From the NCBI GenBank assembly GCA_963740065.1, contig CAVUCS010000002.1, positions 126,858 to 190,857 of the forward strand: DNA of 64,000 bases, in the 5' to 3' direction. The DNA is from an uncultured Solirubrobacterales bacterium (lineage in GTDB: Bacteria > Actinomycetota > Thermoleophilia > Solirubrobacterales > 70-9). The position numbers and the translations under genes are program-made. Under the pieces are notes generated by a model that worked only from the letters and a program-made list of their open reading frames with translations, was not told the DNA's origin and did not search any database. Of the stretch, positions 15,898 to 62,953 are shown in pieces (position 1 is the first letter of the stretch; every line of letters begins with the position of its first letter).

Positions 15898-16715
15898 CGA
15901 ACCAGCGCGGCGAGATCGTCGATGACGTGATCGGGGGGCGGGTCGGCGGCCTCCGCGTCCGCCCGCGAGGAGGCGCCGCTGAGAACGAGGATCGTCTCCA
16001 GCCCGGCCCTGCGCCCACCCTCGATGTCGGAGGCGATCCGATCGCCGACCATCGCCACCCTCGCGTTCCGCTGCGACTTACCTCTGTCATGCATAGATAA
16101 GTCGCAGCGGAGCGAGTTGAGGGCGAGGTCGAAGAGGTGGCGTTCGGGCTTGCCCCCGATTGCGGCGCGTTTCCCGGAGGCGGTTTCGACGGCCGCCAGG
16201 GTCGCTCCCGTGCCCGGCAACGCACCCCCCGGCATCGGCAGGGTCGGGTCGCGGCTGGTGGCGAACAGGGCCGCGCCGCCCTGCAGGGCGCGGGTCGCGG
16301 TCGCCAGCTCCGCGTAGTCGAATTCGCGGTGGCCGGAGACGAGCACCGCGTCGGCGCCGTGGGCTTCCTCCCCCTCCAGCAACCTCAGCCCGGTCCCCGC
16401 AATGACCTCCTTGAAACCGGGCGCCCCGATCACGAAGGCCGTGCCGTCGTGCCCGGTTGCCTCCGCGGCGAGTCTGGCGGTCGCGGCCCCCGCCGTCACA
16501 ACCCGATCGTCCGCAATCTCAACTCCCGCATCGCGCAGGCGCGCGGCATAGGCGGAGGGCTTCTTCACCGAGTTGTTGGTGACGAACACAATCTCCGTCC
16601 CCTCCGCAAGCAGCTTCCCCAGGGCCTCGACAGCTCCCGGCACCATCTCGGAGCCTTCCCACACCACACCGTCTAGGTCGACCAGAAACCCGTCGAAGTT
16701 GTCCGCGAGCGCCAT
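15894..16715 (-). CDS. HAD-IIA family hydrolase (NagD-like phosphatase) carrying an in-frame hairpin-repeat insertion
   Basis: Carries the FLVDLDGVVW (DxD), VTNNS, GKP and MVGDRIASDIEGG motifs. The GKP-to-GD spacer contains repeat copy A1 (see findings). Confidence 0.8.
   Translation of the reverse strand: MALADNFDGFLVDLDGVVWEGSEMVPGAVEALGKLLAEGTEIVFVTNNSVKKPSAYAARLRDAGVEIADDRVVTAGAATARLAAEATGHDGTAFVIGAPGFKEVIAGTGLRLLEGEEAHGADAVLVSGHREFDYAELATATRALQGGAALFATSRDPTLPMPGGALPGTGATLAAVETASGKRAAIGGKPERHLFDLALNSLRCDLSMHDRGKSQRNARVAMVGDRIASDIEGGRRAGLETILVLSGASSRADAEAADPPPDHVIDDLAALVR
16064..16114. repeat. family A hairpin repeat, copy A1 (inside the HAD-IIA CDS)
   Basis: CCGCTGCGACTTA (16068-16080) pairs with TAAGTCGCAGCGG (16098-16110), plus outer pairs. 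The apex is CCTCTGTCATGCATAGA. Confidence 0.8.
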
Positions 16716-20168: not shown

Positions 20169-20175
20169 CTCCGCC

Positions 20176-20218
20176 CCGCTGCGACTTATCCCTGTATGTC
20201 AGAGATAAGTCGCAGCGG
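20176..20218. repeat. family A hairpin repeat, copy A2
   Basis: CCGCTGCGACTTATC / GATAAGTCGCAGCGG with inner CTG/CAG and a TATGT loop. It lies between the convergent ABC permease and esterase genes. Confidence 0.85.
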
Positions 20219-20222
20219 AACG

Positions 20223-38234: not shown

Positions 38235-38301
38235 GCGCAACCCTCGGCCTTCATGCCCCCAACCTACCCGAGCCGCGGGCATCGTTTTCACGTCTCGCAA
38301 C

Positions 38302-38350
38302 GGTGAGTTCGTCTTTGTTCCCGGTATGCGGGAACAAAGACGAACTCACC
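38302..38350. repeat. hairpin H2 (21-bp perfect stem, GGTATGC loop) in a divergent promoter region
   Basis: GGTGAGTTCGTCTTTGTTCCC-GGTATGC-GGGAACAAAGACGAACTCACC, between the MFS (minus) and MBL hydrolase (plus) genes. Confidence 0.85.
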
Positions 38351-38385
38351 GGGCGGCGGGCGGCGGGGATTGAGAGGATGGGTGG

Positions 38386-43851: not shown

Positions 43852-43902
43852 CGTTCCGCTGCGAGTTATGACTGCTATGCAGAGATAACTCGCAGCGGAA
43901 CG
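43852..43902. repeat. family A hairpin repeat, copy A3
   Basis: CGTTCCGCTGCGAGTTAT / ATAACTCGCAGCGGAACG (18 bp), inner CTGC-TAT-GCAG. It begins 2 nt after the efeB stop, upstream of recQ. Confidence 0.85.
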
Positions 43903-47715: not shown

Positions 47716-47757
47716 CGCGCTGCAGGCTATCGACCCCTGCCGCCCCGCCCGCCGAGA

Positions 47758-47810
47758 CCCAGGTGAAACGCATACGCCGGCTATTTCACCGCGTATGCGT
47801 TTCACCTGGG
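47758..47810. repeat. hairpin H3 (20-bp perfect stem) between divergent zwf and gnd
   Basis: CCCAGGTGAAACGCATACGC-CGGCTATTTCACC-GCGTATGCGTTTCACCTGGG. Confidence 0.85.
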
Positions 47811-47832
47811 TGGTGGCCAGTAGGGTTGGGGC

Positions 47833-50991: not shown

Positions 50992-51570
50992 ATGGATGCG
51001 CGGGTTTGGCTGACGGGAAGCGATGGGGCGCCGATCTCGGTGGCGCTCGCTGAGCGGACGGTGGTCGGCCGCGATCCCGAGGCGGACATCTCCCTCGATG
51101 ACGAAGCGGTTTCCTGGCACCACCTCGAGATTGAGGATCGCGGCGGTGTCTTGATGGCGACCGATCTCGACAGCCGCAACGGCACTGTGTTGAACGGCGA
51201 GCCGCTCGACCGGCCGCGGCGGCTGCGCGACGGTGACGTCCTCACCCTTGGCGAGCACCGCCTGGAGGTCTCGGACAAGCTGCCCGGGCGGGCCGGCGCC
51301 ACCGTGCCCGTCGCCGAGCCTTCCGTTCCGCTCAGCGAGGAGGAGCGGGCAACGGCCACGGCGCTGGTCGCCCCCTACCGCAGTGAGGGCGCCTTCGCCG
51401 GTCGCCCCGCCACCCGAGCCGAGATCGCCGAAGCGCTGCACGTCAGCGAGCGGACCGCCCAGCGCCGCCTCGACGCCCTCGCCGCAAAGCTCGACATTCC
51501 CGGCGACTCCGGTCGCGAGCGCCCCCGCCTGATTGCCGCCCGCGTGATCGAGCTCGGCCTGGACCGCTGA
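50992..51570 (+). CDS. FHA-domain protein with a C-terminal HTH
   Basis: FHA core (VGRDPEADISLDDEAVSWHHLEI...SRNGTVLNG) and a C-terminal HTH-like segment (RAEIAEALHVSERTAQRRLDAL). Confidence 0.75.
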   Translation: MDARVWLTGSDGAPISVALAERTVVGRDPEADISLDDEAVSWHHLEIEDRGGVLMATDLDSRNGTVLNGEPLDRPRRLRDGDVLTLGEHRLEVSDKLPGRAGATVPVAEPSVPLSEEERATATALVAPYRSEGAFAGRPATRAEIAEALHVSERTAQRRLDALAAKLDIPGDSGRERPRLIAARVIELGLDR

Positions 51571-51616
51571 GTTTGTCGTTTGGGGTCATATTGCCCTCCA
51601 AACGACAAACTCAGCG
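51565..51616. repeat. hairpin H4 (19-bp stem) overlapping the FHA-gene stop codon
   Basis: CGCTGAGTTTGTCGTTTGG-GGTCATATTGCCCT-CCAAACGACAAACTCAGCG. The TGA of the FHA gene is at 51568-51570, in the left arm. Confidence 0.85.
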
Positions 51617-55644: not shown

Positions 55645-57684
55645 ATGGCCCGCGACACCGACCAACTCTGCATCAACACGATCCGCACGCTGTCGATCGA
55701 CGCGATCCAGAAGGCGAACTCCGGCCACCCGGGCACTCCGATGGCGTTGGCGCCGACCGCCTACACGCTCTGGCAGCGCTTCCTCCGCTTCGACCCGGCA
55801 GATCCGATCTGGCCCAACCGCGACCGCTTCGTCCTCTCCGCCGGGCACGCCTCGATGCTGCTCTACGCGCTGCTGCACCTGGCGGGGGTGAGAGCCGTCG
55901 ACCCCGATTACGAGGTGGTGGGCGAGCCGGCGGTCTCCCTCAAGGACATCGAGAGCTTCCGCCAGCTCGACTCGCGCGCACCGGGCCATCCCGAGTACCG
56001 CTGGACCTCGGGGGTGGAGACGACGACCGGCCCGCTGGGCCAGGGGATCGCGACTTCGGTCGGGATGGCGATCGCCTCAAAGTGGCAGGGCGCCCGCTAC
56101 GGCGCCGACCTCTTTGACTTCGACGTCTACGCGGTCGCCGGCGACGGCTGCTTCATGGAAGGGGTCTCGAACGAGGCTGCCTCCATCGCCGGTCACCTCA
56201 AGCTGGACAACCTCTGCTGGATCTACGACAACAACCACATCACGATCGACGGCAGAACCCACCTCGCCTACGACGACGACGTCTCCGCTCGCTTCATGGG
56301 CTACGGCTGGAACGTGACCCGGGTTGGCGACGCCAACGACACCGAGTTGATCGCTCGCGCCTTCGAGGAGTTCAAGGCCGAGGAGGGTCGCCCGACGCTG
56401 ATCGTCGTCGACAGCCACATCGGCTGGGGGTCTCCGCACAAGCAGGACACCGCCGCCGCGCACGGAGAGCCGCTCGGCGAGGAGGAGGTGCGGGAGACCA
56501 AGCGCGCCTATGGCTGGCCCGAGGACGCGCAGTTCCTCGTCCCCGACGGCGTCAAGGAGCACTTTGCCGCCGGGATCGGGGCGCGCGGCGGCGAGCTGAA
56601 CGCCGAGTGGGAGTCGAAGCTGGCCTCATACGCGGGGGACAACGCCGACCTCGCCGCCGAGATCGAGGCGATGGGGAAGCGTGAGCTGCCCGACGGCTGG
56701 GACGCCGCGATCCCCTCCTTCGAGCCCGACGAGAAGGGGCTCGCGACCCGCAAGGCCTCCCAGAAGGTGGAGAACGCGATCGCCGAGCGACTGCCCTGGC
56801 TACTCGCGGGCTCCGCCGACCTCACCGACTCGACCTCGGTCCGACTCGACTTCGACGGCGCCGCCGACTTTGAGCCCGGCGCGTTCGCCGGTCGCCAGCT
56901 CCACTATGGGATCCGCGAGCACGAGTCGGCGGCGATCTCCAACGGCCTCTCGCTCTCCAAGCTGCGGCCGCTCTGGTCCACCTACCTCACCTTCTCCGAC
57001 TACGCCCGCCCCGCGATTCGCCTCTCGGCGCTGATGGAGCTGCCGGTGATCCATCTCTTCACCCATGACTCGATCGGTCTCGGCGAGGATGGGCCGACCC
57101 ACCAACCGGTTGAGCAGCTCGCCTCGCTGCGGGCGATCCCCGGCCTCGACGTGATCCGCCCCGCCGACGCCAACGAGGTCGCCGAGGCTTGGCGGGTGGC
57201 GATCGACCGCAGCCGGCAGCCGGTCGCCCTCGTCCTCACTCGTCAGAACGTGCCGGTGCTGGACCGCTCGCGCTATGCCTCCGCCGAGGGCACCCGCCGC
57301 GGCGGCTACGTGCTCGCCGACGCTGAGGGCGGCGATCCGGAGGTAATCCTGATTGCCACCGGCAGCGAGGTCGCGCTGGCGATCGCAGCACACGAGGAGC
57401 TGAGCGCCGACGGCGTTCGCTCCCGCGTGGTGAGTCTCCCCTGCTGGGAGCTGTTCGACCGCCAAGATGCCGCCTACCGCGACGAGGTCCTGCCGCCGAG
57501 CGTTACGGCACGGGTCTCCGTCGAGGAAGCGTCGACCCTCGGCTGGGATCGCTACGTTGGCCTTGAGGGAACGAAGATCGGGATGCACACTTTCGGCACT
57601 TCGGCCCCGCTGAAGGACGTCCAAACCAAGTTCGGCTTCACCCCCGACCGGGTGGCCGAAGCCGCAAAGGAGCTGCTGACATGA
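55645..57684 (+). CDS. tkt: transketolase
   Basis: SGHPGTPM, GPLGQGI, GDGCFMEG and GEDGPTHQP motifs. Confidence 0.95.
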   Translation: MARDTDQLCINTIRTLSIDAIQKANSGHPGTPMALAPTAYTLWQRFLRFDPADPIWPNRDRFVLSAGHASMLLYALLHLAGVRAVDPDYEVVGEPAVSLKDIESFRQLDSRAPGHPEYRWTSGVETTTGPLGQGIATSVGMAIASKWQGARYGADLFDFDVYAVAGDGCFMEGVSNEAASIAGHLKLDNLCWIYDNNHITIDGRTHLAYDDDVSARFMGYGWNVTRVGDANDTELIARAFEEFKAEEGRPTLIVVDSHIGWGSPHKQDTAAAHGEPLGEEEVRETKRAYGWPEDAQFLVPDGVKEHFAAGIGARGGELNAEWESKLASYAGDNADLAAEIEAMGKRELPDGWDAAIPSFEPDEKGLATRKASQKVENAIAERLPWLLAGSADLTDSTSVRLDFDGAADFEPGAFAGRQLHYGIREHESAAISNGLSLSKLRPLWSTYLTFSDYARPAIRLSALMELPVIHLFTHDSIGLGEDGPTHQPVEQLASLRAIPGLDVIRPADANEVAEAWRVAIDRSRQPVALVLTRQNVPVLDRSRYASAEGTRRGGYVLADAEGGDPEVILIATGSEVALAIAAHEELSADGVRSRVVSLPCWELFDRQDAAYRDEVLPPSVTARVSVEEASTLGWDRYVGLEGTKIGMHTFGTSAPLKDVQTKFGFTPDRVAEAAKELLT

Positions 57685-58760
57685 AGCCGACCGAGCAACT
57701 GCATGAGATCGGACAGAGCCTCTGGCTCGACAACATCACCCGCGCGATGCTCGCCGACGGGACGCTCGCTCGTTACATCGACGAGCTCTCGGTCACCGGC
57801 CTCACCTCCAACCCGACGATCTTCGACAAGGCGCTCGCCGGCGGCGATTCCTACGACGAGCAGATTGCCGCCGACGGCCCGGCCGCCGCTTCCCCCGAGG
57901 AGCTCTTTTTCGAGCTGGCGATCGCCGACCTGCGCGGCGCGGCCGACCTCTTCGCGCCGGTCCACGCCCGCACCGACGGCGTCGACGGCTTCGTATCCCT
58001 CGAGGTGTCGCCGCTGCTTGCCGACGACACCGCGGGGACGATCGAGCAGGCGGCGCAACTCCACGCCAAGGCCGATCGCGACAACCTCTTCATCAAGATC
58101 CCCGGCACCGAGGCCGGTCACGCCGCGATCGAGGACTCGATCTTCGCCGGCATCCCCGTCAACGTCACCCTGCTCTTCTCGACTGAGCATTACATCGGCG
58201 CCGCCGAGGCTTACATGCGGGGAGTGGAGCGCCGGATCGAGGCCGGGCTCGACCCCAACGTCGCCTCAGTCGCCTCGCTCTTCGTCAGCCGCTGGGATGT
58301 CGCCGTGGCCGACGAGGCCCCCGGGGAGCTGCGCAACCGGCTCGGCATCGCTGTCGGCGGTCACTGTTTCCGCGCCTACCACCAGCTGCTCGACTCCGAA
58401 CGCTGGCAGCGCCTGCTCAATGAAGGCGCCCGTCCGCAACGGTTGCTCTGGGCCAGCACCGGGACCAAGGACCCCGACGCATCGGACACCCTCTACATCG
58501 AGGGGCTCGCCTCACCGCTGACCGTCAACACGATGCCGGAGCCGACCCTGCTCGCCTTCGCCGACCACGGCAGCCTCGGCGATTTGGTCCCGCCCGATGG
58601 CGGCGACGCCGACGATCTCCTCGCCCAGTTCGAGGCGGCGGGCATCGGCATCGACGCCCTCGCCGCGCGCCTCCAGGAAGAGGGCAAGGAGAGCTTCGTC
58701 AAGTCCTGGCGGGATCTGCTCTCGACGATCGAGTCGAAGACGGGGGCGCCGAGCGCATGA
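57681..58760 (+). CDS. tal: transaldolase (actinobacterial long type)
   Basis: GQSLWLDNI, TSNPTIF and IKIPGT (Schiff-base Lys). Overlaps the tkt stop by 4 nt. Confidence 0.9.
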   Translation: MKPTEQLHEIGQSLWLDNITRAMLADGTLARYIDELSVTGLTSNPTIFDKALAGGDSYDEQIAADGPAAASPEELFFELAIADLRGAADLFAPVHARTDGVDGFVSLEVSPLLADDTAGTIEQAAQLHAKADRDNLFIKIPGTEAGHAAIEDSIFAGIPVNVTLLFSTEHYIGAAEAYMRGVERRIEAGLDPNVASVASLFVSRWDVAVADEAPGELRNRLGIAVGGHCFRAYHQLLDSERWQRLLNEGARPQRLLWASTGTKDPDASDTLYIEGLASPLTVNTMPEPTLLAFADHGSLGDLVPPDGGDADDLLAQFEAAGIGIDALAARLQEEGKESFVKSWRDLLSTIESKTGAPSA

Positions 58761-58771
58761 CCCAACCGACG

Positions 58772-58818
58772 TTCCGCTGCGACTTATCCCTGTATGTCAG
58801 GGATAAGTCGCAGCGGAA
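58772..58818. repeat. family A hairpin repeat, copy A4
   Basis: TTCCGCTGCGACTTATCCCTG-TATGT-CAGGGATAAGTCGCAGCGGAA, a 21-bp perfect stem between tal and pgi. Confidence 0.9.
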
Positions 58819-58824
58819 GGCTTC

Positions 58825-60453
58825 ATGACGTTGCGGGAAGGCGCCGCCTGGCGGGCCCTGGAGGCCCACCACGGAGAGCTGAAGGACCGCCGGCTGCGCG
58901 ATCTCTTCGACGCCGACCCCCAGCGCGGCGAGCGCCTCGTCGCCGACGGCGCCGGCCTCCACCTCGACTTCTCCAAGAACCGGATCACCGACGAGACGGT
59001 GATGCTGCTCGGTGAGCTGGCGCGGGAGCGCGGGGTCGAGGCGCGACGCGACGCGATGTTCGCGGGGGAGCACATCAACGTCTCCGAGGATCGCGCCGTC
59101 CTTCACGTGGCGCTGCGGATGCCGCGTGAGCGCTCGCTCGTCGTCGATGGGGTGGACGTGGTGAGAGAGGTGCACGAAGTGCTCGACCGGATGGGCCACT
59201 TCGCCGAAGCGGTGCGCTCGGGCGAGTGGACCGGCCACACCGGCCGGCCGATCCGCAACGTTGTCAACATCGGCATCGGCGGTTCCGACCTCGGCCCGGT
59301 GATGGCCTACGAGGCGCTGCGTCACTACAGCCGCCGCGAGATGACCTTCCGCTTCGTCTCCAACGTCGACGGCACCGATTTCGCCGAGTGCACCCGCGAC
59401 CTCGACCCCGAGGAGACCCTCTTCGTCGTCGCTTCGAAGACCTTCACCACCCTGGAGACGATGACCAACGCGCGCACCGCGCGGGAGTGGTCGCTCGCCG
59501 GCCTCGGCGGGGATGAGTCCGCCGTCGCCAAACACTTTGTCGCCGTCTCCACCAATGCCGAGGAGGTCTCCAAGTTCGGCATCGACACCGACAACATGTT
59601 CGGCTTCTGGGAGTGGGTGGGGGGCCGTTACTCGATGGACTCCGCGATCGGCCTCTCGACCATGCTGGCAATCGGCCCCGCTCGCTTCGCCGAGATGCTC
59701 GCCGGCTTTCACGCCATGGATGAGCACTTCCGCACCGCGGCGCCGGCCACCAACCTGCCGATGCTGATGGGCTTGCTCAGCGTTTGGTACGCCGACTTCT
59801 TCGGCGCCCAGACCTGCGGCGTCTTCCCTTACGACCAGTACCTGCACCGCTTTCCCGCCTACCTCCAGCAGCTGACGATGGAGTCGAACGGCAAGCATGT
59901 GACGCTGGACGGCGCCCGCGTCGACTACGACACCGGCGCGATCTTCTGGGGTGAGCCGGGAACCAACGGACAGCACTCCTTCTACCAGTTGATTCACCAG
60001 GGGACGCGACTTATCCCTTGCGATTTCATCGGCTTCATGCATACGCTGAATCCGATCGGCGACCACCATGACCTGTTGATGTCAAACGTTTTCGCCCAGT
60101 CCGAGGCACTCGCTTTCGGCAAAACCCCGGAGCAGGTGCGGGCCGAGGGCACCCCAGACGATGTCGTCCCGCACCGGGTGATGGAGGGCAACCGGCCCTC
60201 CAACACGATCCTCGCCGATCGCCTCACCCCGGCGACCCTGGGGTCGCTCGTCGCTCTCTATGAGCACAGCGTCTTCACCCAAGGGGCGATTTGGGGAATC
60301 GACTCCTTCGACCAGTGGGGGGTCGAGCTGGGTAAGGCCCTGGCCGTCGCGATCATCCCCGAGCTGCAGGCGGGCCGGGAGCCGAAGCTGCGCCACGACA
60401 GCTCCACCAACGCGCTGATCCGCCGCTACCGCCAGGCGAGGCGCGAGGAGTAA
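58825..60453 (+). CDS. pgi: glucose-6-phosphate isomerase
   Basis: [18 protein letters not shown] and ESNGK motifs; 542 aa. Confidence 0.95.
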
Positions 60454-60455
60454 GC

Positions 60456-61838
60456 GTGCCCTTCGACGCCCTACCGCTGGCGGCGTCGGAGTCCAACCTG
60501 CTCGCCGCGCGCGAGCTGATGGCGTTCACCCTCGCCTTCCACATCATCCTCTCCTGCATCGGCGTTGCCTTCCCGGCGATGGTCCTCACCGCAAACTGGA
60601 TCGGGCTGAAACGCGGCGACGCGGACGCGATTCGCCTGGCGAAACGCTGGTCCAAAGCTCTCGCCGTCACCTTCGCCGTCGGCGCCGTCACCGGCACCGT
60701 GCTCAGCTTCGAGTTCGGCTTGCTCTGGCCGCGCTTCATGGAGCGCTTTGGCGACGCCTTCGGGATCGCTTTCGCGATTGAGGGCCTCTTCTTCTTCACT
60801 GAGGCGATCTTCCTCGCGATCTACATCTACGGCTGGAAGCGGCTTAGCGGCTGGGCGCACTTCTGGGCGGGCGTGCCGATGTTGGTCACCGGCATCGGCG
60901 GCGCCTTCTCCGTCGTCACCGCCAACGCGTGGATGAACCAGCCGCAGGGCTTCACGCTCGACGCCGCCGGCAAGGTGATCGATACCGAGCCGCTCAAGGT
61001 TCTCTTCAACTCCGCCTGGAGCTACGAGGTCCCCCACATGATCCTCGCCGCCTACATGGTCGTCGGCTTCCTCGTTGCCTCGATCTACGCGGTCGGGATG
61101 CTGCGCGGGCGGCGCGACCGCCTGCACCGGCTCGGGCTGTTGATCCCGTTGACAATCGCCTCAATAGTCACTCCGGTCCAGCTTTTCGTCGGCGACACCG
61201 CGGCGCGCGCCGTCGCCGACCACCAGCCGGCCAAGTTCGCCGGGATGGAGTGCATCGAGAAGACCGGCACGGACCAGACTGAGTACATCGGCGGCATCTG
61301 CACCAGCGACGGTGTGAAGGGGGCGATCCCGATCCCCGGGCTCGACTCTTTCCTGGTCGGCTTCAGCACCGACACGGAGGTCACTGGGCTAAACGACATC
61401 CCCGCCGACGAGCGCCCCCCGGCGAACACCCTGCTGCACCTTTCCTTCGATGCGATGGTCGGGATCGGCACAGCGCTGATGGGTCTCGCTCTCTGGCTGG
61501 CGTACGTCTGGTGGCGCCGCCGCGACATCCCGAGAACGCCCTGGTTCCTGCGCGCGGTGGCGATCTCCGGCGTCGGCGCGATCGTCGCCCTCTGGGCCGG
61601 TTGGATCGTCACCGAAGTCGGTCGCCAGCCCTGGATCGTGCAGGGCTATATGAGGACATCGGAAGCGGTCACCGAGGCGAAGGGGATCTGGTTCGTTTTC
61701 GCCGCCGTCTTGATTCTCTACGCGGCGATCGGCACCGGAGCCGTCCTCGTCCTGCGCGCGATGTCGCGGCGCTGGCGCGAGGAAGGCGATGGAGAGGCCG
61801 ACGTCCCCTACGGCCCCCCCGCGGAGGCATCCCGATGA
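60456..61838 (+). CDS. cydA: cytochrome bd ubiquinol oxidase subunit I
   Basis: Carries FH..L....V.FP, GWKRL and the Q-loop, with a WIV.E.GRQPW motif (WIVTEVGRQPWIVQG). GTG start 2 nt after the pgi stop. Confidence 0.9.
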   Translation: MPFDALPLAASESNLLAARELMAFTLAFHIILSCIGVAFPAMVLTANWIGLKRGDADAIRLAKRWSKALAVTFAVGAVTGTVLSFEFGLLWPRFMERFGDAFGIAFAIEGLFFFTEAIFLAIYIYGWKRLSGWAHFWAGVPMLVTGIGGAFSVVTANAWMNQPQGFTLDAAGKVIDTEPLKVLFNSAWSYEVPHMILAAYMVVGFLVASIYAVGMLRGRRDRLHRLGLLIPLTIASIVTPVQLFVGDTAARAVADHQPAKFAGMECIEKTGTDQTEYIGGICTSDGVKGAIPIPGLDSFLVGFSTDTEVTGLNDIPADERPPANTLLHLSFDAMVGIGTALMGLALWLAYVWWRRRDIPRTPWFLRAVAISGVGAIVALWAGWIVTEVGRQPWIVQGYMRTSEAVTEAKGIWFVFAAVLILYAAIGTGAVLVLRAMSRRWREEGDGEADVPYGPPAEASR

Positions 61839-61842
61839 CCGG

Positions 61843-61885
61843 CTGTGTCGCCTTTGTATCGGTATGCGAAACAAAGGCGACACAG
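61843..61885. repeat. hairpin H5 (15-bp stem, GGTATGC apex) between cydA and cydB
   Basis: CTGTGTCGCCTTTGT-ATCGGTATGCGAA-ACAAAGGCGACACAG. Homologous to H2 (shared CGYCTTTGT..GGTATGC..ACAAAGRCG). Confidence 0.85.
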
Positions 61886-61896
61886 AGGTGGGCGCG

Positions 61897-62901
61897 ATGA
61901 GCCTCGCCGACGTCTCCGCAGTCATCCTCTGGGCCGGGGCCACCCTCTACGCGCTCTTCGGCGGCGCCGACTTCGGCGCCGGCCTCTGGGATCTGATCGC
62001 CGGGGACGATCAGCGTGGAGAGCGACCCCGCGCCTTGATCCAGCGCTCCCTCACTCCCGTTTGGGAGGCGAACCACGTTTGGCTGATCTTCATCCTGGTT
62101 GTCCTCTGGACCGCCTTCCCCGAGGCCTTCAGCGCGGTGATGACGACGCTGTACGTGCCGCTGACGCTGGCCGCGTTCGGGATCGTCTTGCGCGGCGCGG
62201 GCTTCGCCTTCCGCAAGTCGATCCACTCCTTCCAGGCGCGGCGGGCGATGGGGGCAACCTTCGCCCTTTCCTCGGTGCTGACCCCGTTCTTCATGGGGTG
62301 CGTCGTGGGGGCAATCGCATCCGGCAACGTCCCCGCCGCCGGTGACGGCGACGCCTTCGCAAGTTGGATTGAGCCGCTGCCGTTGCTGACCGGGGCGCTG
62401 TTCGTCGCCAGCGGCGCCTATCTGTCGGCGATCTTCCTGATCGGCGACGCTCGCCGGGCCGGCGCAAGCGACCTCGAGGATTACTTCACTCGCCGCGCCC
62501 TCGCCGCTTCGCTGGTCGCGGGCGCCTTTGCCGTCGCCGGCATCTTCGCCCTGCGCGCCGACGCCCGCTACATATACGACGGCCTCACCAGCGAGGGCCT
62601 GCCGCTGGTGATCCTCTCGGCCCTCTGCGGCCTGGCGGTCGTGGTTCAACTGCTGCGCCGCGATCGCCGCGGGCTGCGCCCGCTCGCCGCCGGCGCGGTC
62701 GTCGCCGTGATCTGGGGCTGGGGCGTCGCCCAGTTCCCCTACCTGCTTCCGACTTCGCTGAAGATCTCCCAGTCGGCGGCTCCCTACGACACCCTGCTGA
62801 TCGTGCTGATCGTCTTCTGCATCGCCGCGGTGATCGTGCTGCCATCGCTCGGGCTCCTCTACTGGCTCACCCAGCGTGATTTGCTCGAGGCCGAGCACTA
62901 G
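61897..62901 (+). CDS. cydB: cytochrome bd ubiquinol oxidase subunit II
   Basis: Typical CydB N-terminus (LYALFGGADFGAGLWDL) and 8 TM. ATG at 61897 after a GAGGTG SD; the upstream part of the track ORF spans hairpin H5. Confidence 0.85.
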   Translation: MSLADVSAVILWAGATLYALFGGADFGAGLWDLIAGDDQRGERPRALIQRSLTPVWEANHVWLIFILVVLWTAFPEAFSAVMTTLYVPLTLAAFGIVLRGAGFAFRKSIHSFQARRAMGATFALSSVLTPFFMGCVVGAIASGNVPAAGDGDAFASWIEPLPLLTGALFVASGAYLSAIFLIGDARRAGASDLEDYFTRRALAASLVAGAFAVAGIFALRADARYIYDGLTSEGLPLVILSALCGLAVVVQLLRRDRRGLRPLAAGAVVAVIWGWGVAQFPYLLPTSLKISQSAAPYDTLLIVLIVFCIAAVIVLPSLGLLYWLTQRDLLEAEH

Positions 62902-62902
62902 C

Positions 62903-62953
62903 CGTTCCGCTTGGCCTTTTCCCGGACATACAGGGAAAAGGCAAAGCGGAACG
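62903..62953. repeat. family A-related hairpin repeat, copy A5 (same outer stem, different inner stem)
   Basis: CGTTCCGCTTGGCCTTTTCCC-GGACATACA-GGGAAAAGGCAAAGCGGAACG, 20 of 21 positions paired, directly after the cydB stop. Confidence 0.8.

Follow-up and report, generated by a model that had tools for sequence, protein, structure and literature searches.

A 51-nt palindromic repeat between tal and pgi of a Solirubrobacterales genome, probably a copy of a lineage-restricted selfish DNA element

The genome analyzed here (G000) is a MAG of a Solirubrobacterales bacterium, 95.6% complete, with 2.26 Mb and 67% GC in 10 contigs, and the window, that is, the whole stretch of 64,000 nucleotides under analysis, lies on its contig C2. 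Pfam matches identified genes for transketolase (tkt, 55645-57684), transaldolase (tal, 57681..58760, plus strand, 359 aa, with its stop codon TGA at 58758-58760), and glucose-6-phosphate isomerase (pgi, 58825..60453, plus strand, 542 aa, phosphoglucose isomerase family, with its ATG at 58825), followed downstream by cydA and cydB. A pentose phosphate/glycolysis cluster adjoining cydAB is an unusual gene order. Along tkt-tal-pgi-cydA-cydB (55645-62901), the junctions without a hairpin were tight, tkt and tal sharing an ATGA overlap and pgi and cydA being separated by 2 nt, and the only long junctions were the two that carried hairpins, namely, tal-pgi (64 nt) and cydB-HAD (74 nt).

The tal-pgi spacer (58761-58824, 64 nt) is largely occupied by copy A4 (58770..58820) of a 51-nt palindromic repeat, designated family A, which fitted the consensus CG-TTCCGCTGCGACTTATCCCTG-N5-CAGGGATAAGTCGCAGCGGAA-CG save that its last two bases were GG. 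On the plus strand, the left arm TTCCGCTGCGACTTATCCCTG (58772..58792) is followed by the loop TATGT (58793..58797) and the right arm CAGGGATAAGTCGCAGCGGAA (58798..58818). The stem described in the initial annotation (58772-58818; 21 bp, perfect, closed by a loop of 5 nt) was evident in the sequence and was recovered by an inverted-repeat scan (21-nt arms, 100% complementary) and in the RNA fold. Nine bases after the tal TGA are followed by CG, so that the stem starts 11 nt past the stop codon, while GGCTTC and then the pgi ATG come after the right arm. The last four bases of that arm, GGAA, are also the first four of GGAAGG (58815..58820, plus strand), the sole candidate Shine-Dalgarno (SD) sequence of pgi; four of its six bases (58815-58818) were paired in the stem, in agreement with the earlier statement that two-thirds of it was buried. 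The ribosome binding site of pgi in G000 is therefore the element's terminal GGAA plus GG from the flank, and in the sister species (G002) the SD was likewise built on the element's end. No alternative in-frame start was available to pgi: a TAA occurs upstream at 58804-58806, the sister species has the same ATG only, and this ATG is backed by a conserved N terminus (M-T-L-R-E) in relatives. A 6-nt direct repeat, CATGAC, surrounds the insert on the plus strand, its left copy (58756..58761) containing the tal stop codon and its right copy (58824..58829) the pgi start codon.

A search of the window with the arm pattern (up to three mismatches) returned eight arm matches, which formed four hairpins, compared with 0.01 expected by chance. 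Besides A4, these were copy A1 (16064..16114), in frame within a minus-strand gene for a HAD-IIA phosphatase and translated as SLRCDLSMHDRGKSQRN; copy A2 (20172..20222), between two convergent genes, with one stop codon 3 nt away from an end of the element and the other directly adjoining (0 nt); and copy A3 (43852..43902), a GAGTTAT/ATAACTC variant with a compensated C-G to G-C pair, located 1 nt past a minus-strand stop codon (all palindrome coordinates are given without strand). Five dispersed copies had originally been counted in the window. Four of them proved to be family A proper, while the fifth (62903..62953), between cydB and the HAD gene, shares the termini and size of family A but belongs to a sister subfamily with a different compensated inner stem (CGTTCCGCTTGGCCTTTTCCC...). 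Hairpins of unrelated families were also seen in the window at 38301-38351, 47757-47811, 51565-51616, and 61843-61885.

Genome-wide pairing of arms revealed 66 true copies in G000, and the repeat was thus not restricted to the five loci first noticed. Column statistics defined the conserved unit as 51 nt, CG-TTCCGCTGCGACTTAT-CCCTG-N5-CAGGG-ATAAGTCGCAGCGGAA-CG, with a consensus stem of 23 bp, in which the outer 17 bp were almost invariant (information content of 1.5 to 2.6 bits per position in the arms) and the inner 5 bp together with the loop formed a variable 15-nt apex. A perfect 21-bp stem occurred in only 8 of 63 copies of standard length, most having 18 to 20 pairs. Variable pairs were found in compensated states (C-G in 48 copies and G-C in 4) as well as in hybrid mismatches (G/G in 8 and C/C in 2). 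The loop was present in both orientations, TATGT in 13 copies and ACATA in 12, and the consensus ends were symmetric (CGTTCC...GGAACG). Extension of the stem into the flanks did not exceed the expectation from composition; the 5' flanks were rich in C and the 3' flanks rich in G, in part owing to SD-like G runs abutting many copies.

The distribution of family A was narrow. The exact pattern gave 46 matches in G000, 43 in G002 (same GTDB genus), 2 in G015 (another genus), and none in 38 other relatives, among them a third congeneric species (G001). Among 185,579 species, each represented by one genome, exact matches were confined to Solirubrobacterales/Thermoleophilia MAGs and nearly all of them fell in the G002 assembly, and no copy was detected in viral contigs. 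Sister subfamilies of equal length with TTCCGCT...AGCGGAA termini and compensated inner stems (GCTGTTCCTTT... and GCTTTGCCTTTT...) were recognized, as were at least three unrelated families of near-perfect 45- to 51-nt hairpins in G000 (GCCGAGTTCGTCCTTGTTCCCG..., GGTGCAACGCAAACG..., and CCTGTGTCGCCTTTGTTTCG...). All of the unrelated families had T-rich left arms and loops with TAT or ATA. In addition, the 86-kb contig C3 carried 11 of the 66 copies, three of which followed successive ∼1-kb genes of a cluster of TetR-family paralogues (e.g., C3:62868-64994), and the element's left end (17 nt, CCGTTCCGCTGCGCGGG) was tandemly duplicated twice ahead of a full copy at C3:62868.

Based on a simple GC3-based ORF model, 13 of the 66 copies, including that at tal-pgi, were assigned to operon junctions of the type stop-element-start, with a start codon 3 to 22 nt downstream. 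The arrangement at pgi is thus typical of the family rather than special. Another 21 copies lay after a stop codon only, 3 between convergent stops, 4 before a start codon only, and 3 in divergent positions, while 9 were unclear; the remaining 13 (∼20%) were inside ORFs, in frame, in long high-GC3 reading frames. In total, 37 of the 66 copies were located no more than 25 nt past a stop codon, often at a distance of 0 to 5 nt. Such positions, some of them between convergent genes, would suit an intrinsic (factor-independent) terminator copied to many gene ends, as would the strength of the GC-containing hairpin and a slight enrichment of T 4 to 6 nt past the stem. We consider this reading extremely unlikely, given that no U-tract abutted the stem (the 3' flank being G-rich), that promoter and terminator scans around the operon made no call at the element, that the copies at the 13 operon junctions precede nearby start codons, including that of the essential pgi, and that the 13 intragenic copies reside in intact ORFs conserved across species, where a true terminator would silence the downstream sequence.

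On either strand, the element has two of its three frames open, reading ...RSAATY..ISRSG.. or ..FRCDLS..DKSQR..., and an intragenic copy amounts to 17 codons. A single Pfam match ran across the insert in KsgA/RrnaAD (residues 1-257 aligned to profile positions 8-255), in hydantoinase B (HyuB; residues 2-458 to profile positions 15-470), in YfiH/Cu-oxidase_4, and in the HAD-IIA hydrolase with copy A1 of the window, whereas the domain matches of NTP_transferase and PMT_2 were broken in two by the insert. For seven of the nine genes compared, the orthologues in G001, G015, and G003 were shorter by 11 to 22 residues at exactly the insertion points. Several intragenic copies (L011, L024, L036, and L041) were common to G000 and G002, indicating tolerance by the proteins ever since these species diverged. 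Two intragenic sites were more than merely vacant in relatives. The linker of a 3-hydroxyacyl-CoA dehydrogenase (C1:352463-352513) contained family A in frame in both G000 and G002, a different 47-nt hairpin (GGTGTTACGCG..., GGTGTTACGCGTTT...AAAACGCGTAACACC) at a position equal within a few bases in G001 (L054), and only a short CCTCG-ATGC-CGAGG hairpin in G015. In the isochorismate synthase gene, the element took the place of a segment of similar length in relatives.

Comparison of the tal-pgi junction among relatives placed the hairpin in an evolutionary context. A GTGA stop/start overlap was found in G001 (same genus), G041, G047, G064, G017, and G014, a TTGA overlap in G053 and G048, and an ATGA overlap in G058, while the spacers of G004, G073, G003, G066, and G044 measured 1 to 7 nt. 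Since tal and pgi overlap or nearly abut in these relatives, the hairpin can be regarded as an insertion that broke translational coupling. In G000, the tal stop codon is in the left CATGAC and the pgi start codon in the right one, in contrast to the relatives, in which a single NTGA does both. A hairpin at this junction was present in four genomes only, as family A in G000 and G002 and as a decayed GCTGTTCC subfamily (subfamily B) in G015 and G042. The G002 hairpin contained a single mismatch and, relative to that of G000, a single compensated change from T-A to G-C, and the short stretch separating the hairpin from the tal stop codon was homologous in all four genomes (xCxAACCxx). From sequence comparison, these patterns suggest one old invasion of the junction with a later subfamily swap and loss of the hairpin in G001 and G053; alternatively, the element may have been inserted at the junction independently. 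The N terminus of Pgi in G001 was about five codons shorter than those of its relatives, which fits an imprecise deletion of a former hairpin (locus L048).

The role of the hairpin as DNA or RNA was evaluated across the copies of the family. Under selection as RNA, G.U mismatches are expected to be tolerated in a hairpin, in contrast to A.C mismatches. On the sense strand of the 51 copies with a clear direction of transcription, 25 G.U and 28 A.C mismatches were counted, and the loop read TATGT in 9 and ACATA in 8 of these copies relative to transcription. With G.U about as frequent as A.C and the loop orientation unbiased, nothing points to a selected RNA role for the family. A search of Rfam returned no family at the gathering threshold, the only sub-threshold matches being microRNA-precursor-like and directed to a generic hairpin. 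Strand symmetry, intragenic copies, and the missing U-tract together argue that the family as a whole is maintained as DNA rather than as a dedicated terminator or riboregulator.

At the level of the single transcript, the A4 hairpin was predicted to be very stable. The 47-mer RNA had a predicted folding energy of -41.1 kcal/mol, and its 101-nt context a z score of -7.7 against shuffled sequences. The two A residues of the SD had predicted unpaired probabilities of 0.007 and 0.045, and the predicted opening cost was 3.4 kcal/mol for AAGG, 10.1 kcal/mol for GGAAGG, and ∼36 kcal/mol for the full ribosome footprint. A terminating ribosome covers ∼12 to 13 nt downstream; a ribosome at 58758-58760 would therefore extend no farther than the base of the stem at 58772, and coupling through unwinding is not expected. 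A perfect 21-bp duplex is a classical minimal substrate of RNase III, the gene for which was present in G000. The cleavage of Correia/nemis hairpins by RNase III in Neisseria transcripts provides a published precedent (PMC10969869).

Several features could be read as signs of a domesticated cis-regulatory RNA hairpin, that is, a processing or stability signal between tal and pgi (an RNase III site or a 3'-exonuclease barrier) or a translational throttle setting tal relative to pgi. The hairpin is kept at the junction in the four lineages, its stem is perfect in G000 although few copies of the family have a perfect stem, the change between the A4 orthologues of G000 and G002 is compensated, the outer arms are better conserved than the flanks, and the SD sits on the element's end in both species; furthermore, a 21-bp duplex coincides with the presence of an RNase III gene, and the preference for sites shortly past stop codons resembles that of E. 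coli REPs. We nevertheless judge this explanation rather unlikely. G001 and G053, relatives at the same distance as G002, lack the hairpin and have the NTGA overlap restored, the hairpins of G015 and G042 have decayed, no U-tract is present, neither the mismatches nor the loop orientation showed the expected asymmetry relative to transcription, and the stems of the 13 copies within ORFs would be melted by translating ribosomes. A regulatory reading may be plausible for tal-pgi; for the whole family, it was not supported by the strand-symmetry test.

Turnover of the element was seen between the sister species. Roughly 36 copies of G002 were mapped onto G000, and at these sites family A was present in both species at ∼13, another hairpin family or subfamily occupied G000 at 6 to 7, and ∼16 were empty in G000. 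Subfamily replacements had identical boundaries (L014, L037, L045, and L044). Some hairpins of unrelated families also occupied sites that hold family A in the sister species. In six exactly projected G000/G002 pairs, the 36 outer-arm bases differed at 0 to 1 positions in four pairs and at 4 to 6 positions in the other two, in which the changes were compensated. The 15-nt apex differed by ∼30% between orthologous pairs and the flanks by 12%. The outer arms, differing less than the flanks, are either constrained or homogenized, whether by selection, gene conversion, or re-insertion, as a neutral relic should have diverged more. In one orthologous pair (C6:97389-97439 versus L040 of G002), the central 15 nt were inverted between identical arms, which would be the expected product of recombination between the arms; the apex is free and can flip. 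The copy distribution and the presence or absence of copies between species ∼12 to 15% apart, in which empty sites were rarely clean, suggest that the element is mobile.

Constant arms around a free center are also what a DNA-level binding site might look like, with two inverted half-sites of 17 bp (CGTTCCGCTGCGACTTAT) that lie 15 bp apart and are bound by a dimeric host protein (nucleoid associated, gyrase-like, or a recombinase). The near invariance of the outer arms against the variable central 15 nt, their conservation between species beyond that of the flanks, and the orientation independence of the element are compatible with such a site, and binding of gyrase, IHF, and Pol I by E. coli REP/BIME sequences has been described (PMC2817692). 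We find this very unlikely, as the copies are found not at promoters but within ORFs and past stop codons, the congeneric G001 and nearly all relatives lack the family and have other hairpin families instead, and the sister subfamilies alter the half-site in a compensated manner that keeps pairing rather than sequence.

Concerning the enzyme that could move the element, the RAYT/Y1 transposase family (PF01797) was absent from G000 and from all 25 genomes of its taxonomic family, including G002, with control genomes scoring positive; this profile search bore out, and extended to the whole genome and family, the initial observation that no RAYT/HUH transposase gene is present in the window. Neither IS110 (PF01548) nor TnpB (PF07282) had a match in any of the three congeneric genomes (G000, G001, and G002). 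Neither solo arms nor a longer element with the same ends was found in the G000 MAG by a search that was not exhaustive, all 145 arm matches being paired in hairpins or attributable to chance or degenerate sequence. The multicopy segments examined in G000, only one of which was at least 600 bp, encoded no transposase and were not IS elements. No signal of a target-site duplication was seen at two candidate boundaries or at any offset, and the longest words shared between flanks were barely above the control (12 versus 7 expected at ≥6 nt). The mobilizer is not a RAYT/IS200-type Y1 transposase; given that the genomes are MAGs, a transposase could lie in the missing part.

Other readings were also rejected: REP-RAYT, for the lack of a RAYT in the genome and family and of a GTAG or CGTC tag; MITE, for the lack of a target-site duplication and a parent IS; a DNA-uptake-like sequence, as the arms almost never occur singly; and an operator of a regulon, on the basis of position after stop codons and inside ORFs. 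A more unusual scheme is a transposase-less cassette, in which resident hairpin sites would be reused and their occupants swapped by a structure- or terminus-specific enzyme of the host or another source, even inside essential genes and at tal-pgi. Its members would be family A, the TTCCGCT/AGCGGAA sister subfamilies, and the unrelated GCCGAGTTCG..., GGTGCAACGC..., and CCTGTGTCGC... families, all of 47 to 51 nt. We hold this scheme to be unlikely; if true, hairpin-for-hairpin replacement would represent a new mode of mobility for small elements, distinct from ordinary transposition.

Taking the locus and the family together, A4 is probably a copy of a lineage-restricted, nonautonomous palindromic DNA repeat that is selfish and tolerated by its host. 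Such a 51-bp element would spread within the genome, or be exchanged there, at the DNA level and regardless of orientation, and its copies would survive where harm is small, i.e., past stop codons, in very short spacers of operons, and, in frame, in protein loops that tolerate them. At tal-pgi, the element entered a junction with an ancestral shared NTGA; the genes are now 64 nt apart, and an ATGA stands on both sides, of which the left keeps the tal stop codon and the right the pgi start codon. In a tkt-tal-pgi(-cydAB) transcript, a 21-bp duplex of -41 kcal/mol would abolish translational coupling and might tax the initiation of pgi translation by ∼3 to 10 kcal/mol. With two helical turns, the duplex would also be a plausible RNase III substrate and 3'-exonuclease barrier and could give tal and pgi different mRNA fates; cleavage by RNase III would part the two messages and, at the same time, free the SD. 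Most likely, such RNA effects are side effects of a tolerated selfish insertion and not the reason for its existence.

Among known systems, family A is closest to the Rickettsia palindromic elements (RPEs) and to intragenic REPs on account of its in-frame copies, and the original classification as a REP- or RPE-type repeat without a RAYT was right and is now much more firmly based, with 66 dispersed copies and the absence of PF01797 from 25 family genomes. RPEs are likewise dispersed palindromes found between genes and in frame in unrelated housekeeping genes, where they are translated as a short extra peptide (Ogata et al. 2000/2002; PMC10969869), and they share with family A a lineage-restricted distribution and the lack of a known transposase (PMC10969869). 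In contrast to family A, with its 51-bp, almost perfect hairpin, RPEs are ∼100 to 150 bp long (PMC10969869), and nearly half of the copies are intragenic in some RPE families compared with ∼20% in family A (PMC10969869). Moreover, the RPE host is an obligate intracellular alphaproteobacterium, while that of family A is a high-GC, free-living soil actinobacterium (Thermoleophilia), and family A has no sequence relationship to RPEs and falls outside the ten Rickettsia sequence families.

REPs and REPINs are also short hairpin repeats, present in tens to hundreds of copies that usually lie shortly past genes and, on occasion, within them (PMC3116915, PMC2817692, PMC3733652). They are, however, defined by a GTAG or CGTC tag and an asymmetric tail (PMC3733652), both of which are missing from family A with its symmetric ends; their stems are 8 to 15 bp compared with 21 to 23 bp, and they have a RAYT, typically flanked by REPs, whereas no RAYT was found in the 25 family genomes. 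The closest published situation with regard to mobilization is that of CGTC-tagged REPs, including some RPEs, which have no dedicated transposase either and can likewise be intragenic (PMC3733652), although their 8- to 9-bp stems and asymmetric tag are unlike family A and the survey lists no Actinobacteria (PMC3733652). Actinobacteria were likewise absent from the published REP surveys consulted (PMC3116915, PMC2817692, PMC3733652). Correia/nemis elements and other bacterial MITEs resemble family A in being nonautonomous, with inverted ends that fold into a long mRNA duplex (PMC10969869), and inversion of an internal part has been reported for Correia/nemis (PMC10969869). Correia elements are nonetheless 100 to 200 bp long, with TA target duplications, promoters, and IHF sites (PMC10969869), whereas family A lacks target duplications and a parent IS and, with a loop of 5 nt, carries no internal cargo. 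Family A is a new family of a known kind, namely, small palindromic dispersed repeats with intragenic in-frame copies.

These comparisons extend selfish palindromes inside protein genes, hitherto typical of Rickettsia, to soil actinobacteria that are free-living and high in GC, in a form of only 17 codons that is easy to study. The tal-pgi junction offers a clean natural experiment, in which an ancestral stop/start overlap in a central-carbon operon has been replaced and the ribosome binding site rebuilt from the end of the element, and the effects of insertion on operon expression can be tested directly by comparing sister species that have this hairpin, a different one, or none. The absence of a known hairpin transposase also provides a lead to how transposase-less palindromes, such as CGTC-type REPs and RPEs, move.

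With respect to the assembly itself, contig C6 contained three tandem copies of ∼6.5 to 7 kb each with 98 to 99% identity (C6:62670-85982), and two small contigs were 96% identical to parts of larger ones (C4:159022-173260 versus C9, and C1:4959-10405 versus C7), which suggests strain heterogeneity or unresolved assembly duplications.
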